A DNA stretch of 64,000 bases from Planktomarina sp. (GTDB taxonomy: Bacteria > Pseudomonadota > Alphaproteobacteria > Rhodobacterales > Rhodobacteraceae): the NCBI GenBank assembly GCA_020630595.1, contig JAHDBC010000008.1:13008-77007 (forward strand), read 5' to 3'. Positions 4,116-9,782 of this stretch are shown here, piece after piece. The notes beneath the pieces were generated by a model. That model saw nothing but the letters and a program-made list of their open reading frames with translations, was not told the origin of the DNA and made no database searches. Position 1 is the first letter of the stretch, and each line of letters opens with the position of its first letter. A program made the position numbers and the translations under genes.

Positions 4116-5065
4116 CGATGAAAGTATTGATGACACGCAAACTGCCAGATCGTGTGATTGCGGCAGCGCGGGACCGGTTCGAAGATTTGACCGTCCGCGA
4201 CAACACTGTGCCCCTGACTGTGGAAGAGGCGCGGCAATCCATGCACGATTATGATGCTGTGCTTCCAACATTGGGCGACCAATATGGCGCGGCAGCGTTC
4301 GAAGGCGGAAACTTCAGATGCAGACTTCTGGCCAATTTTGGGGTGGGGTATAACCACATCGATGTCACTGCCGCAGCGGACGCGGGGATCGCGGTGACGA
4401 ACACCCCGGGTGCTGTGACCGATGCCACTGCCGATATTGCCATGACATTGATGTTGATGACCCTGCGCCGGGCTGGCGAAGGGGAACGACTGGTGCGGGC
4501 CGGGGCATGGGACGGTTGGCATCCAACGCAAATGTTGGGCCTGCATATGACGGGCAAAACCGTTGGCATTATTGGTATGGGCCGGATCGGCCAGGCCATT
4601 GCCGATCGTTGTCGGTTGGGCTTTGGCATGAAGGTGGTGTTTCACAATCGATCTGAAAAAGCGATCGAGGGCTGCACGCAGCTTGCGTCGCTGAATGATG
4701 TGATGGCTGCGTCTGATGTTGTTGTGCTTGCCATGCCCGGCGGGCCCGCAACGCGACATATGATCGGGGCCGATGCCTTGGGCGCAATGCAGCCCCATGC
4801 GTTCCTGATCAACATCGCGCGTGGCGATGTGATGGATGAAGCGGCGTTGATAGATGTGCTGCAATCGGGTGGCATCGCCGGTGCAGGGTTGGATGTGTAC
4901 GAATTCGAACCCAAGGTGCCGGATGCGCTGTTGGCGATGGAAAACGTGACCTTGCTGCCGCATCTGGGAACAGCGACCCTGGAAGTGCGCGAAGATATGG
5001 GGCTGATGGCAGTGCGCAATCTGATTGCCCATCTGGATGGTCAGCCGCTTCCCAATCCTGTGTAA
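4112..5065 (+). CDS. D-isomer-specific 2-hydroxyacid dehydrogenase (glyoxylate/hydroxypyruvate reductase-like)
   Basis: 317 aa. NAD-binding GKTVGIIGMGRIGQAIA, INIARGDVMDE and PHLGTAT catalytic His region. The start is TTG 4112 or ATG 4118. Confidence 0.87.
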   Translation: MTMKVLMTRKLPDRVIAAARDRFEDLTVRDNTVPLTVEEARQSMHDYDAVLPTLGDQYGAAAFEGGNFRCRLLANFGVGYNHIDVTAAADAGIAVTNTPGAVTDATADIAMTLMLMTLRRAGEGERLVRAGAWDGWHPTQMLGLHMTGKTVGIIGMGRIGQAIADRCRLGFGMKVVFHNRSEKAIEGCTQLASLNDVMAASDVVVLAMPGGPATRHMIGADALGAMQPHAFLINIARGDVMDEAALIDVLQSGGIAGAGLDVYEFEPKVPDALLAMENVTLLPHLGTATLEVREDMGLMAVRNLIAHLDGQPLPNPV

Positions 5066-5071
5066 CGTGGT

Positions 5072-5207
5072 CCCGCCGTTTCGGCGGGGCATGATGTTTG
5101 CGACCCCCATCCGGGGGATCGCGCCCTCACAAACCGCGTTGCGTTTTGTGAGGGCAAGAGGGGCGCTGCCCCTCAGACACCCCGGAGTATTTTGGGCAAA
5201 ATGAAGA
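5072..5207. repeat. intergenic repeat family B, copy 2 (longer version, with an 11-bp GCCCTCACAAA/TTTGTGAGGGC hairpin and terminal CCCCGGAGTATTTTGGGCAAAATGAAGA)
   Basis: Shares module order and the terminal motif with 2147-2244. Fills the whole gap between two convergent genes. Confidence 0.6.
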
Positions 5208-6284
5208 CTATTGGAATCGTTTGGGCGACAGGGCTGCAACGGTTTTTGGATCCAAAAGACTGGTGCGTTCGGCGCAGATGTCACCGATCAATTGGCTGGC
5301 GGCGGGACTTGTTTGCATGCCGTACCCGCCTTGACCCGCGCACCAAATGAAGGCCGGGTCATCGGCTGCACGCCCAAGGACAAGCGATCTGTCTGGGGCG
5401 AAAGTGCGCAATCCGGCCCAGCTGGAGATGGGTTTTGTGACGGGTTCTGTTACATAGTCTTGATACGCGGCCAGCCCCGTTGCCAAATCCAGATCATCCG
5501 CCCATGCATCATGGGGATCGACCGGAGTTTCATCCGCGGGTGATACCAGCAGCGCACCCGCATCTGGTTTTGCATACCAGGTTTCGCCGGGGCCAAAGAT
5601 CATGGGCCATGTTTTCGGATCGTGCCCGCCGGGGGCTGCGATGCGCGCCATGGACCGTTTCAGTGGTTGCAGCCCAAGGGGGGTGATCTTGGCCAGCATC
5701 GCGATCTGATCCGCCCACGATCCCGCTGCGTTGATCAAGGTCCGAGCTTGGTATGTTGCGGCTGGTGTTTTCACGTCCCATCCCGCCGTCGTGCGGGTGA
5801 TGGATGTTACACGCTGGCCGGTTGCAACGGTGCCGCCGGCTGTGCGGATGTCGCGGGCGAAATCCTGTATCAGTTTGTCTGTATCAATGTCCCATGCATC
5901 TGAATGGTGCGCCGCCATGGTGACGGTCGCGGTGTCCAGTATTGGCAACAGGGTGGTTGCATCCGCCATGGTCAAACGTGTCAGCGACATGGTCTGACAG
6001 TCCCGGTCAAAGGCATCTGTTTCGTGGGGCTGGCCGATCAACAAAAGACCGCGTGGGGACAGGACGCCGCCATGGGCAGAAAAGTGGTGATCTTTTGAGG
6101 CGCGGTTCAACGCAATGGTCGTGGGTTTGCCGTAGGTTTCTTCGAAAAGTGCAGCCGACCGGCCAGATGCGTGATAGGCCAGATGCGCTTCGGCTTCCAA
6201 GACGATGGTTTCGCCCAAGGGTGCGACCCGTGCCCCTGCGCTGATCCCGGCAATGCCGCCCCCAATGACAAGAAAATCGATCAT
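5208..6284 (-). CDS. FAD-dependent oxidoreductase (DAO / amine-oxidase-like family)
   Basis: Start taken at the internal ATG (MIDFLVIGGGIAGISAG dinucleotide-binding motif), which overlaps the upstream stop (ATGA at 6281-6284). About 358 aa with a C-terminal GQGGYGMQTSP region typical of the family. Confidence 0.8.
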   Translation of the reverse strand: MIDFLVIGGGIAGISAGARVAPLGETIVLEAEAHLAYHASGRSAALFEETYGKPTTIALNRASKDHHFSAHGGVLSPRGLLLIGQPHETDAFDRDCQTMSLTRLTMADATTLLPILDTATVTMAAHHSDAWDIDTDKLIQDFARDIRTAGGTVATGQRVTSITRTTAGWDVKTPAATYQARTLINAAGSWADQIAMLAKITPLGLQPLKRSMARIAAPGGHDPKTWPMIFGPGETWYAKPDAGALLVSPADETPVDPHDAWADDLDLATGLAAYQDYVTEPVTKPISSWAGLRTFAPDRSLVLGRAADDPAFIWCAGQGGYGMQTSPAASQLIGDICAERTSLLDPKTVAALSPKRFQ

Positions 6285-7207
6285 GGTTCTTCGATCCGAT
6301 CTGTGGCCGGGGGTGGCGTTTGTGACAGGGCGGTGATCTGGGGACGCTGCTGATCGGTCAGGGGATGATCCAGTGCCGCAAGCGATGGTTCCAGCTGCGC
6401 AAGGGATCTTGCCGATACGATGGGATGACAATGCGTACCCATGGCCCATGCCACGGCCAGCGTTGCCGGGTGCCGGCCCCATTCAGATGCAAGTTCGGCA
6501 AGATCGGCGGCTGTCTGGCGCATCCATGCCACATCATAGCGGGCCTGATACCGAAGATCATCGGTCAACCGGCCTGACGCGCCCTTGGCATATTTGCCGG
6601 TCAAAAGCCCCCCGCCCAGTGGGGAATAGGGGATCACCGCCATGGTCTGATCCTGGGCCATGGGGATCAGTTCAACCTCTGCCTGCCGTTTGACGAGCGA
6701 ATACATCGGTTGAATGACGTCAATCCGGCTGCCCAAGGATGCGCAAATGGCCTGTGCTTTCATCACTTGCCATGCGGCAAAGTTCGAAACGCCGATGTGG
6801 CGGATCAGGCCGCGTGATTGCAAATCGACCAGCGTTTCAAATTGGGCGGCCAAAGGGTCATCGTTCCAGCGGTGCAGATAAAGAATATCAACATAGTCGC
6901 TGTCCAGTCTTTGCCGCGACACATCAAATTGCGTGCGGATTGTGTCTGGTGTGGCGCCACCCTGATAGCTGACTTTGGTGGCAATCTGCAGATCGGCGCG
7001 CCGCCCTTTGGCCAGTTGGCCCAGCATCGTTTCCGCTTGCCCGCCCGTGTACAGATAGGCGGTGTCAAAATGCGTGATGCCACGGTCCAAGCAGGCGTCA
7101 AACATGGCGCGTGCGTCGTCAAATGACGCTGTCCCGCCCCATTGCATGGTGCCATAGGTCAGCGGTGGGAGGGGCAAGGATGTGTGTTCCATGGGCCTAG
7201 GTGACAC
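6281..7207 (-). CDS. aldo/keto reductase
   Basis: 308 aa. GITHFDTAYLYTGGQAE, IRHIGVSNF and PYSPLGGGLLTGKY are AKR motifs. Confidence 0.87.
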   Translation of the reverse strand: MSPRPMEHTSLPLPPLTYGTMQWGGTASFDDARAMFDACLDRGITHFDTAYLYTGGQAETMLGQLAKGRRADLQIATKVSYQGGATPDTIRTQFDVSRQRLDSDYVDILYLHRWNDDPLAAQFETLVDLQSRGLIRHIGVSNFAAWQVMKAQAICASLGSRIDVIQPMYSLVKRQAEVELIPMAQDQTMAVIPYSPLGGGLLTGKYAKGASGRLTDDLRYQARYDVAWMRQTAADLAELASEWGRHPATLAVAWAMGTHCHPIVSARSLAQLEPSLAALDHPLTDQQRPQITALSQTPPPATDRIEEP

Positions 7208-7244
7208 GGCCCATGGGATATGTGCAAGCGCCCTGATGCCTGGG

Positions 7245-7691
7245 TCAGCCGTTGACGGCCATGGGCAGATCGTCGGTCAGGTTTTCAGCCGGATAACGCA
7301 TTCCACGATCCTGCACATAAACGTCGGCATCAAACAGATGGAACGCGCTTTTCAAACGATTGATCACCTTGGCCCGATCAACGTCGGTTTGACAGGTGTA
7401 AAGATCGATCGTCACAAACCCGCGTCCGGGGAAGGTGTGAAAGCTGATGTGGCTTTCGGCGATCATCACAAAACCGGACAACCCGCCGGGGTCTTTGTGG
7501 CAGTTTGGCCCGACAGAGACCACGACCGGATCGCAAATCGCGTGCATGCCCATTTCCCCGGGCAGACGGCCCAGCAAATCTTTCAGCGCATCCTGATCGA
7601 CCATGAATGGGCCAGATGCAGTGTAGCCGTCGATCATGATATGGACGCCGAATTGTTCGGTACCGGGGGCGGTTGGGTGATGATGGGTCAT
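7245..7691 (-). CDS. small pyruvoyl-dependent decarboxylase of the S-adenosylmethionine decarboxylase (SpeD/SpeH class 1) family
   Basis: Internal ATG at 7691 (MTHHHPT...) overlaps the upstream stop (ATGA). The self-processing motif ESHISFHTFP (Glu-Ser cleavage site) and a size of about 148 aa fit the family. The substrate cannot be assigned from sequence. Confidence 0.8.
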   Translation of the reverse strand: MTHHHPTAPGTEQFGVHIMIDGYTASGPFMVDQDALKDLLGRLPGEMGMHAICDPVVVSVGPNCHKDPGGLSGFVMIAESHISFHTFPGRGFVTIDLYTCQTDVDRAKVINRLKSAFHLFDADVYVQDRGMRYPAENLTDDLPMAVNG

Positions 7692-8173
7692 GATGTGTGT
7701 CCTTGTGCGTTGTGTGGGGAAAGGGGACGCAGGCGGTCCCAGATCAGGAAATAGGCCCAAGCCCATGCGGCGTAGATCACGCTAAGGCCCAGATCGACAA
7801 AGAGTGCGGTGTACAGGTCCAGCCCCGCCATCCAGATCAGGATGGGCAGGGTGATCAGAATGGATGACAGTTCATGGGAAACCGCATGGGCCACGCGCAA
7901 AGAGTGCGGTCTGTCTGATGCGACGCGGCCCGACAGGCGCAGGTCAACATGATCGAACACAGCATTGTGGGCCGGTGACCAGATCATCACCGCACAGGTC
8001 AACAGTCCAAGAACCAGCGCATCGTCGGTTGCCGATTGGGTCGAAAAGAATGACAGAAAAGGAAGCGAGATCAAAAGCCCGGTTGCTTCGAACCCCACGG
8101 TTTGCCAGACGCGTTCGCCCAAGGTGCGGGTGCAAGGAAGGGGCGCGTTCAGGGTTAGGCTGGTATCAGTCAT
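7688..8173 (-). CDS. PACE-family (bacterial transmembrane pair, AceI-like) efflux protein
   Basis: Four hydrophobic segments in two repeats. Each repeat opens with an R-x-x-h-a-x-x-F/H-E type motif (ERVWQTVGFEA and LRVAHAVSHEL). ATG at 8173 is preferred over TTG at 8185. Confidence 0.7.
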   Translation of the reverse strand: MTDTSLTLNAPLPCTRTLGERVWQTVGFEATGLLISLPFLSFFSTQSATDDALVLGLLTCAVMIWSPAHNAVFDHVDLRLSGRVASDRPHSLRVAHAVSHELSSILITLPILIWMAGLDLYTALFVDLGLSVIYAAWAWAYFLIWDRLRPLSPHNAQGHTS

Positions 8174-8310
8174 CGGTCTGTCCAAAGTTGTTTGAACAGA
8201 CGATGCCGGGTTTTGGGCCAGCTGACGCGCTGGTTTTGAATTTCAGCCAGCGGTTTTCAGATTCGACCGGCCTTTTTCAAAAAAGGTTGGCCTGTCTGGC
8301 ATTCCGCCGA

Positions 8311-8592
8311 TCAGCGGGGACCAAGCGCAAAGGGCAACAGCACAAGCGGCGCAACCAAAACCAAAATCCCGATCCAGCGGACCAGCTGATTGCCCCAATA
8401 GCGCACGACCAAGGCAAACAGACCCAAATACCCCAAACCAAACAGACACAGCAGGATCAGGACGGCATGTTCGATGATCGCGCCCTGGTCATTTGGGGCG
8501 GGTTTGTGGACCGACAGAACCACCACAGCGGCAACCAGCCCTGTGGCAACGGCACCAATGGCGATCAAAATGGATTTGCGAAAGATCGACAT
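8311..8592 (-). CDS. small hypothetical membrane protein (3 predicted TM segments)
   Basis: 93 aa ORF, strongly hydrophobic. No recognisable family. Confidence 0.45.
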   Translation of the reverse strand: MSIFRKSILIAIGAVATGLVAAVVVLSVHKPAPNDQGAIIEHAVLILLCLFGLGYLGLFALVVRYWGNQLVRWIGILVLVAPLVLLPFALGPR

Positions 8593-8648
8593 GCCCTAGC
8601 CTAGAAACCGGGTTAAGGGTGCGTCAATTGCTGCGCAGCGCTGCCCCC

Positions 8649-8679
8649 AAAAGAAAAGGCCCGCACAAATGGCGGGCCT
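8649..8679 (-). terminator. rho-independent terminator downstream of the xdh/ABC operon
   Basis: On the minus strand, GGCCCGC-loop-GCGGGCC is followed by TTTTCTTTT, about 25 nt after the stop of the BMP-family binding-protein gene. Confidence 0.6.
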
Positions 8680-8702
8680 TTGTGATCAAAGCGCGAATGC
8701 CC

Positions 8703-9782
8703 TTAGTTCGGAATTTCGCCTTCGATGCCTTCGACATAGAAGTTCATGGCGACCAGTGGGTTGTCCCCGCTGAAGTCAGACCCTGTTTCCCCTTCGGCCA
8801 GATAGACAGATCCGTCCTGTTTGTTCAGGGGGCCTGTGAACGGGTGATATGCGCCTGATTTGATGTCTTCGATCATTTGCATGGCTTCGGCCTGTACGTT
8901 GGCTGGGATCTTGTCAGACATATCGGCAAACGCGACCATACCCGGTGCGATCCCATCCCATGTGTCTGTGGATTCCCATGTGCCATCCATTACGGCCTTT
9001 ACGCGATCTACGTAGTATGGACCCCAGTCATCAATGATCGATGTCAGGTGCGCGTTGGGTCCGAATGCAGACATGTCAGATGCCTGACCAAAGGCCAAAA
9101 TCCCGGCTTCTTCGGCTTTGCCCATGGGGGCTGTGGAATCGGTGTGCTGCATCAGAACGTCGACGCCTTGGTCGATCAGGGCTTGCGCCGCATCCGCTTC
9201 TTTTGCGGGGTCAAACCATGTGAAGACCCAGACGATTTTCATTTCCACATCCGGGTTCACCGCTTTGGCGTGGATGTAGGCAGAGTTGATGCCGCGGATC
9301 ACTTCTGGAATGGGGAAGGATGCGATGTAACCAATTTTGTTGGTTTCGGTCATGTTGCCCGCGATGTGGCCCAGAACCGCGCGGCCTTCGTAAAAGCGTG
9401 CGGAATAGGTCGACACGTTTTCGGCGCGCTTGTAGCCGGTTGCGTGTTCGAATTTCACATCCGGGAATTTGGCAGCCACGTTGATCGTCGGATCCATGTA
9501 TCCAAACGATGTGGTAAAGATGATGTCGGCACCAGACAGCGCCATTTGTGTCATCACCCGTTCTGCATCTGCGCCTTCTGGCACGGATTCAACGAATGTT
9601 GTTTCAACGGCATCGCCCAACGCTTCTTCTACGGCAAGACGGCCCTGATCGTGTTCATAGGTCCAGCCGAAATCGCCCACTGGGCCAACATAGACAAAGC
9701 CTGCTTTGACCGTTTCGGCCACGGCACCCGTTGCCAGCATCGCAGCAACAGCAGCACCCCCCAGGATGGTTTTGAAATTCAT
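8703..9782 (-). CDS. BMP-family (PnrA/Med-like) ABC transporter substrate-binding protein, probable purine/nucleoside binding
   Basis: Start at the internal ATG (MNFKTILGGAAVAAMLATGAVA signal peptide). VKAGFVYVGPVGDFGWTYEHDQG and a periplasmic binding-protein pattern typical of basic membrane protein family SBPs. Confidence 0.85.
   Translation of the reverse strand: MNFKTILGGAAVAAMLATGAVAETVKAGFVYVGPVGDFGWTYEHDQGRLAVEEALGDAVETTFVESVPEGADAERVMTQMALSGADIIFTTSFGYMDPTINVAAKFPDVKFEHATGYKRAENVSTYSARFYEGRAVLGHIAGNMTETNKIGYIASFPIPEVIRGINSAYIHAKAVNPDVEMKIVWVFTWFDPAKEADAAQALIDQGVDVLMQHTDSTAPMGKAEEAGILAFGQASDMSAFGPNAHLTSIIDDWGPYYVDRVKAVMDGTWESTDTWDGIAPGMVAFADMSDKIPANVQAEAMQMIEDIKSGAYHPFTGPLNKQDGSVYLAEGETGSDFSGDNPLVAMNFYVEGIEGEIPN

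Follow-up and report, generated by a model that had tools for sequence, protein, structure and literature searches.

Gene organization at the locus

The window, a stretch of 64,000 nucleotides from Planktomarina sp. (GCA_020630595.1, contig JAHDBC010000008.1), contains four genes in a row on the minus strand. The first two encode a PACE-family transporter and a pyruvoyl-dependent decarboxylase with the fold of S-adenosylmethionine decarboxylase (AdoMetDC). The PACE gene (8173..7688, minus strand, 161 aa) matches PF05232 (BTP) in two stretches, with 90.2 bits (cut-off 25.6) and an E-value of 8.8e-26. The decarboxylase proenzyme gene (7691..7245, minus strand, 148 aa; PF02675, E 4e-22) starts within an ATGA that also contains the PACE stop codon (7691-7688). 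The third gene, for an aldo-keto reductase (AKR; PF00248, E 7e-68), starts at 7207 (GTG) or 7192 (ATG) and ends at 6281. It shares a second ATGA (6284-6281) with the fourth gene, which encodes a DAO-family FAD oxidoreductase of 358 aa (6284..5208, minus strand; PF01266, E 5e-42). A mechanically called open reading frame of 424 aa starting at 6482 is an over-extended version of the DAO gene.

The original prediction, made from the letters of the window, described this row of four genes (8173-5208) and both ATGA overlaps, and all of them lie where it placed them. It gave the gap between the two gene pairs as 37 nt; this is correct if the AKR gene starts at the GTG, and the gap is 52 nt if the ATG is used. 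The self-cleavage motif that it reported, ESHISFHTFP, is found in the decarboxylase as AESHISFHTFP. Alignment to 1VR7/1TLU places the predicted cleavage site between the codons of Glu79 and Ser80 (7457-7452, minus strand).

Upstream of the PACE gene, a terminator-like hairpin (8681-8655, minus strand; 10-bp stem, 7 GC pairs, T-rich tail) ends a BMP-type ABC transporter operon, 22 nt past the stop of its substrate-binding-protein gene at 8703. The hairpin marks the upstream edge of the transcription unit of the PACE-decarboxylase cassette. The region between the hairpin and the PACE gene (8174..8654, minus strand) is the non-coding leader and promoter region of the cassette. A sigma-70 consensus was looked for in this region and was not found. 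An Rfam search of 4800-9200 gave no family at threshold in the leader; the sole match was a sub-threshold Trp_leader on the terminator hairpin. The alignment of 26 cassette upstream regions revealed no conserved motif, conserved columns or operator. No terminator was predicted between the decarboxylase and AKR genes. At the other end of the row, a GC-rich hairpin at 5070-5090 follows a plus-strand 2-hydroxyacid dehydrogenase gene, 118 nt past the DAO stop, and could be a terminator common to both convergent units. The runs that contain the window stretch are DNA runs of an algae metagenome and a plant metagenome; no RNA run was among them.

Conservation and mobility of the PACE-decarboxylase pair

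The PACE-decarboxylase pair is rare and patchy in its distribution. It is conserved as a translationally coupled unit whose two genes move together. Decarboxylase relatives were compared at 80 loci, counted apart from the window. The decarboxylase gene has a BTP gene as its neighbour in the window and at 28 of the 80 loci (29 rows), and at all 28 the decarboxylase is at least 51% identical to the window enzyme. In separate look-ups of close homologues of the decarboxylase or the PACE protein, the two genes adjoin in seven of seven contigs. The adjacency is far beyond chance, because BTP genes are rare and yet flank 29 decarboxylases. The assembly holding the window (G000; 2.74 Mb, 94.5% complete) carries one BTP gene and one AdoMet_dc gene, and no BTP gene was found in 14 control genomes.

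The PACE gene is upstream of the decarboxylase gene at 27 loci, and at 22 of them the PACE stop and the decarboxylase start overlap, by 4 nt (15 loci) or by 8 nt (7 loci). At two loci, L065 and L108, the PACE gene is downstream; thus the gene order within the pair is not fixed. A second BTP/PACE gene is seen near the pair at L022:6654-6998 and L023:1401-1886. One of these encodes 114 aa and directly follows the decarboxylase gene, and the other is ~2 kb upstream.

Some 30 genomes carry the pair, and they belong to the Alpha-, Beta- (Hydrogenophaga) and Gammaproteobacteria (Thiolinea, Granulosicoccaceae). Its carriers are Rhodobacter, Tabrizicola, Paracoccus, Stagnihabitans, Alitabrizicola, Silicimonas, Lacimonas, Hyphomicrobium, Hydrogenophaga and Granulosicoccaceae, and the separate look-ups added Thiolinea. 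The closest relative of the window decarboxylase is in a Planktomarina metagenome-assembled genome (MAG). In a sample of 200 genera of the family, no further genome with both genes was found. A close decarboxylase was found in only one genome of that sample (G106), and the genome of the same genus had none.

At least six unrelated neighbourhoods harbour the pair. They include ruvCAB/ybgC-tolQ, MarR/aminotransferase, GerE/RES-Xre, scpAB/dcd, and the ABC/AKR-DAO junction of the window. The polyamine genes of the carriers are also varied: among eight cultured or near-complete carriers, five have speE (PF01564) and six have a second PF02784 protein. These varied backgrounds indicate that the cassette behaves as an accessory unit. 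No plasmid copy of the cassette was found, so there is no sign of it being plasmid-borne. There are no close phage homologues of the decarboxylase (all below 36% identity), and no convincing direct or inverted repeats flank the cassette.

In Rhodobacter-type loci, a protein of 206-211 aa without a Pfam match is encoded between ruvB and the cassette (L041:7307-7942; L042-L056). It was considered as a third member of the module and rejected, since neither the window nor the loci of Beta- and Gammaproteobacteria encode it and its position does not depend on the presence of PACE.

The decarboxylase and its predicted substrate

The window decarboxylase shares the fold and the ESH cleavage motif of class-1b AdoMetDC (SpeD/SpeH; T. 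maritima 1TLU/1VR7; TIGR03330), matching 1VR7 at E 1.3e-12. Ser80, His85 and Cys100 align with S63, H68 and C83 of the T. maritima enzyme, whose roles are described in PMC10407285. The self-cleaving Ser and the catalytic His and Cys of the bona fide fold are therefore all retained, and Ser80 is predicted to become the pyruvoyl group. However, the TIGR03330 equivalog model gives the protein 64.5 bits, short of its cut-off (75.65). In other Rhodobacteraceae, the distant AdoMet_dc genes (31-45% identity) adjoin speE in three genomes and are 3 kb off in a fourth. These speE-linked enzymes read HTWPE...F.CG around the cleavage site, whereas the window enzyme and all its relatives read KDPGGxSGFVMIAESHISxHTFPxR...YTCQ (HTFPGR in the window). 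HTWPE is thus replaced by HTFPxR and FxCG by YTCQ, and a KDPGG loop is added. A long branch with an SH-aLRT support of 99 separates the window group from the speE-linked enzymes. The speE partner, obligatory for a genuine AdoMetDC, is missing as well: no PF01564 match was found in G000, in G106 (99% complete), or in three of the eight isolates carrying the pair (G201, G202 and G206). The window decarboxylase appears not to be a true AdoMetDC. It is proposed to be a neofunctionalised member of the AdoMetDC fold, within a speY-linked, SpeDA-like superclade.

The gene content of G000 is consistent with such a change. Li et al. picked neofunctionalised enzymes by the criterion of an "anomalous SpeD", a SpeD homologue in a genome without speE and without a canonical arginine or ornithine decarboxylase (ADC/ODC) (PMC10407285). 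G000 matches this situation. The profile search for spermidine synthase (Spermine_synth, PF01564) gave no match in the whole assembly, hence none in the window, where the original prediction had already seen no speE-like gene. OKR_DC_1 and PvlArgDC were sought in G000 and neither was found; LysA is its sole PF02784 (alanine-racemase-fold) decarboxylase, and no other recognisable arginine or ornithine decarboxylase was found. A putative agmatine-consuming enzyme (SpeB or AguA) is encoded: G000 has three agmatinase-family genes, with predicted substrates, and it also has an arginase. All three agmatinase-family proteins pass TIGR01230, and one reaches 435 bits on NF002564. No deoxyhypusine-synthase/SpeY homologue (DS family) was found in G000, and none of its proteins is above the cut-off for Sacchrp_dh_NADP, the domain common to CASDH and homospermidine synthase (HSS). 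No recognisable triamine pathway (speE, SpeY, or a CASDH/HSS-type domain) was found in G000. The polyamines of the host organism may be imported, or may consist solely of putrescine and agmatine.

The substrate is suggested by the gene neighbourhoods of the relatives. Homologues with 45-57% identity to the window enzyme are encoded in speD-speY-arginase operons at 14 loci (Alphaproteobacteria MAGs, Geminicoccaceae and Ectothiorhodospiraceae), and at two Patescibacteria loci (L077 and L079) with speY only. Every speY-clustered SpeD homologue assayed by Li et al. was an arginine decarboxylase, inactive on ornithine and lysine (PMC10407285). SpeY couples two agmatines, and the SpeY pathways are agmatine-dependent (PMC13625781). 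The signature KDPGGLSGFVMIAESHISFHTFPGRGFVTIDLYTCQ is common to the window enzyme and the speY-speB-linked homologues. The PACE-linked and speY-linked sets have ~45 near-invariant positions in common, ~28 of which are unlike the speE-linked enzymes, and consistent differences between the two sets are seen at only 4 positions, all conservative. In the tree, the speY-linked Patescibacteria sequences and the main PACE-linked clade fall within one clade of 40 rows (SH-aLRT 93). Many other Patescibacteria relatives of the decarboxylase (52-64% identity; L063, L066, L068, L072 and others) are without an adjacent PACE or speY gene.

The window enzyme thus resembles SpeDA (Li et al. 2023, PMC10407285; 2026, PMC13625781) in its small class-1b AdoMetDC fold with the Ser/His/Cys self-processing triad, in the lack of speE and canonical ADC/ODC, in the agmatinase homologues of its genome, and in the speD-speY-speB operons of its relatives. 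It differs from SpeDA in its partner, which is a PACE transporter and not speY or speB; clustering with both is seen in the relatives at 45-57% identity but not in the window. Another difference is that G000, without speY, HSS, CASDH or speE, shows no visible triamine fate for the product.

A second, independent association points to the same product. In three metagenome contigs, the gene for a PACE protein 42% identical to that of the window, with the same ASDRP loop, overlaps a gene of the PvlArgDC family. This family is non-homologous to SpeD, and the partner has the cleavage motif N-x4-S-S. Two non-homologous families of pyruvoyl decarboxylases beside one PACE subfamily are best explained by agmatine as their common product. 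At L138:1911-3001 (also at L139 and L140), the divergent PvlArgDC gene comes first, with a 7-nt overlap with the PACE start, and a large BTAD/TPR regulator-like gene comes after. When 400 sampled genomes of the class were searched for such PvlArgDC-PACE pairs, the single match was a canonical PvlArgDC without PACE.

Transport, alternative explanations and significance

The original prediction proposed that the membrane protein is PACE-like, and the profile search agrees: the two BTP repeats cover a protein of the ~150-aa class that retains the glutamate of the first transmembrane helix (TM1). This residue, Glu29 in GFEATG, is kept in all 27 aligned partner proteins, and the motifs WSPxHNxxFD, RVASDRP, HAxSHE and YDRLRP are conserved across them. 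According to PMC9045395, the corresponding glutamate (E15 of AceI) is fully conserved in PACE proteins and needed for proton coupling. The literature cited there describes AceI, the PACE prototype, as an exporter of cadaverine and putrescine for which the TM1 glutamate is essential. The window protein resembles AceI in its two BTP repeats, its length (~150-160 aa), the TM1 glutamate and the paired motifs of the family. It differs from AceI in that it falls well below the 180-bit cut-off of the AceI equivalog model (45 bits), has a distinctive RVASDRP loop between the repeats, is not accompanied by a divergent LysR regulator of the AceR type, and is encoded by a gene overlapping that of a biosynthetic decarboxylase.

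It is probable that the two genes constitute a make-and-export module, in which arginine is converted to agmatine and agmatine is exported by the PACE protein, with AKR and DAO outside the module. The idea that a decarboxylase and an exporter together make and export an amine was already in the original prediction; it gains support here and becomes more specific, with a conserved, coupled and mobile pair, a decarboxylase in a distinct clade, and a PACE-like profile. We infer the substrate, the transported species, and the direction and purpose of the transport from the gene associations described above. In this scheme, the cassette (8173-7245) is self-contained and was inserted between the BMP-type ABC operon and an older AKR-DAO pair. 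The proenzyme would cleave itself between Glu79 and Ser80 and gain its pyruvoyl cofactor. The mature enzyme would turn L-arginine into agmatine, as SpeDA does, and would not act on S-adenosylmethionine. Driven by the proton gradient, the co-translated PACE protein would export agmatine from the cytoplasm; if an agmatinase acts first, the exported species would be putrescine. Three candidate purposes can be considered: the transporter may be a relief valve for a constitutively active decarboxylase, it may secrete agmatine into the surroundings (the stretch is found in algae and plant metagenome DNA), or the pair may exchange arginine and agmatine in the manner of AdiAC and AaxBC.

Several observations weigh against this scheme. 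One nested clade of Paracoccaceae (six loci) has lost PACE and retains the decarboxylase. In Fuscovulum blasticum (CP020470, L136:2501-3052), PACE is present alone at the ruvB/ybgC-tolQ site; the protein is extended to 183 aa and its gene overlaps a convergent CreA gene, so it looks like a remnant after the loss of the decarboxylase. These cases indicate that either gene can be maintained without the other. The PvlArgDC partner is divergent (65.7 bits versus a cut-off of 106.95) and is seen in one lineage only. The link to arginine is a gene association, because the clade contains no assayed member and the tree took in no assayed SpeDA sequence. In G000, the lack of speY, homospermidine synthase, CASDH and speE leaves no triamine sink for agmatine visible. 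The window PACE protein is just under the NCBIfam subfamily cut-off for NF033664 (PACE_transport), with 74.9 bits versus 80, while its 42%-identical counterpart at L138 reaches 88.8 bits. To our knowledge, the known substrates of PACE proteins are diamines and biocides, and transport of agmatine has not been reported. Finally, because no terminator is predicted after the decarboxylase gene, all four genes of the window may still be co-transcribed here.

The same two genes could instead act on ornithine, lysine or 2,4-diaminobutyrate, with PACE exporting the resulting diamine as AceI does. In the literature cited in PMC9045395, the physiological substrates given for PACE are short-chain diamines. 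A shift of the SpeD fold to ornithine is known elsewhere, and G000 has no other ornithine decarboxylase. We consider this explanation unlikely. The ornithine-type enzymes (SpeDC), compared here through the SpeD2 domains of the published fusion alignment (Fig. S5 of PMC10407285), have Gln, Thr, Phe and Tyr around the cleavage site, in the type QLIETSLxSGHF, where the window protein reads FVMIAESHISFHTFP. Likewise, the longer signature QLIETSLxSGHF...FSC is absent, and the window enzyme reads MIAESHISFHTFP...YTC. At the conserved positions the enzyme is near-identical to the speY-speB-linked homologues, and ornithine and lysine were not substrates of any assayed SpeDA enzyme (PMC10407285). The PvlArgDC-family gene that takes the place of the decarboxylase beside the same PACE subfamily also argues for arginine.

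The original prediction also raised a route through all four genes, in which the decarboxylase makes an amine, the FAD enzyme oxidizes it to an aldehyde, and AKR reduces the aldehyde to an alcohol; PACE would then export either an intermediate or the end product. In favour of this route, all four genes share one strand, the gaps are short, no terminator is predicted within the row, and a DAO gene also follows the pair in the Planktomarina MAG at L040. Nevertheless, synteny disfavours this route, and the expected conservation of the four-gene order in relatives was not observed. AKR is beside the decarboxylase at none of the 80 related loci, and DAO is absent from 79 of them; the single exception, L040, has no AKR. 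In the complete genome of the same genus (G197), the orthologue of the ABC operon is followed after 87 nt directly by the DAO orthologue, and PACE, the decarboxylase and AKR were not found in that genome. In G106, of the same family, AKR and DAO adjoin each other after the same ABC operon, and the close decarboxylase orthologue (77% identity) is 350 kb away, beside the tol-pal cluster. The DAO orthologues in G197 and G106 are at 57%. These arrangements indicate that AKR-DAO is the older local pair and that PACE and the decarboxylase were inserted upstream of it. AKR and DAO are pre-existing neighbours unrelated to the conserved module; AKR is probably co-transcribed with the cassette here, yet stands outside the module. 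The flavoprotein was described as amine oxidase-like, but it matches only the general DAO family PF01266, with weak, sub-threshold similarity to many DAO-family enzymes and all NCBIfam matches far below their cut-offs. The four-gene route is very improbable. G106 contains a different insert between the ABC operon and AKR-DAO (L123:4492-6628), encoding a 209-aa unknown protein and a 524-aa Pyr_redox_2 protein, which suggests that the ABC/AKR-DAO junction is a recurrent insertion point.

It is equally hard to credit a genuine S-adenosylmethionine decarboxylase working with an unrecognised aminopropyl transferase, with PACE adjacent incidentally or for polyamine homeostasis: the Pfam AdoMet_dc match, the Ser/His/Cys triad, the retained Pro of HTFP and the PF01564 proteins of five isolates with the pair are in its favour, but PF01564 is absent from G000, G106, G201, G202 and G206, the enzyme is below the equivalog cut-off and clearly separated from the speE-linked enzymes, and its relatives are encoded beside speY-speB, for which agmatine is required instead of decarboxylated S-adenosylmethionine.

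The proposed coupling of agmatine production to PACE export has formal parallels. In AdiA-AdiC of enterobacteria and AaxB-AaxC of Chlamydia, an arginine decarboxylase gene is beside the gene of a transporter for its cationic product, and AaxB is pyruvoyl-dependent. AdiC and AaxC, which function in acid resistance, are arginine:agmatine antiporters of the APC family. PACE is a family of four-helix proton antiporters, unrelated to the APC-family antiporters. In formal terms, AaxB-AaxC is most closely paralleled by the PvlArgDC-PACE contigs. In contrast to these systems, an exchange of precursor and product is not established for PACE, and the hosts of the pair are environmental bacteria of neutral waters. 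A broader proposal can be made tentatively, and we hold it as possible but somewhat doubtful: the PACE subfamily with the ASDRP loop would be dedicated to agmatine, which it would either export or exchange for arginine, and pyruvoyl arginine decarboxylases with two unrelated folds (SpeD-derived and PvlArgDC) would have recruited it on at least two occasions. Environmental Proteobacteria would then have a new kind of system that decarboxylates arginine and exports the product. In that case, PACE would have guanidino-amines such as agmatine among its natural substrates, which could explain why the family recognises the bis-biguanide chlorhexidine.

SpeDA enzymes, diamine efflux by PACE, and decarboxylase-transporter pairs are each known, but a SpeD-derived decarboxylase coupled in expression with PACE was not found in the literature searched. 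Our search for PACE with AdoMetDC or with agmatine found nothing relevant. The finding should be of moderate to good interest to specialists of polyamines and efflux pumps. Cultured carriers such as Stagnihabitans tardus, Hydrogenophaga luteola, Alitabrizicola rongguiensis and Rhodobacter spp. make experiments feasible. For annotation, decarboxylase genes of this type should not be labelled S-adenosylmethionine decarboxylase, nor taken as a sign of spermidine synthesis. The pair extends neofunctionalised SpeD enzymes to Alpha-, Beta- and Gammaproteobacteria, and to a setting where export, and not triamine synthesis, is apparently the purpose of amine production. Work on PACE proteins has centred on their role as pumps for chlorhexidine resistance, and AceI with its short diamines is the single example behind their natural roles. 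The conserved, coupled pairing of PACE with a decarboxylase is a direct, testable lead to a physiological substrate of a whole PACE subfamily.

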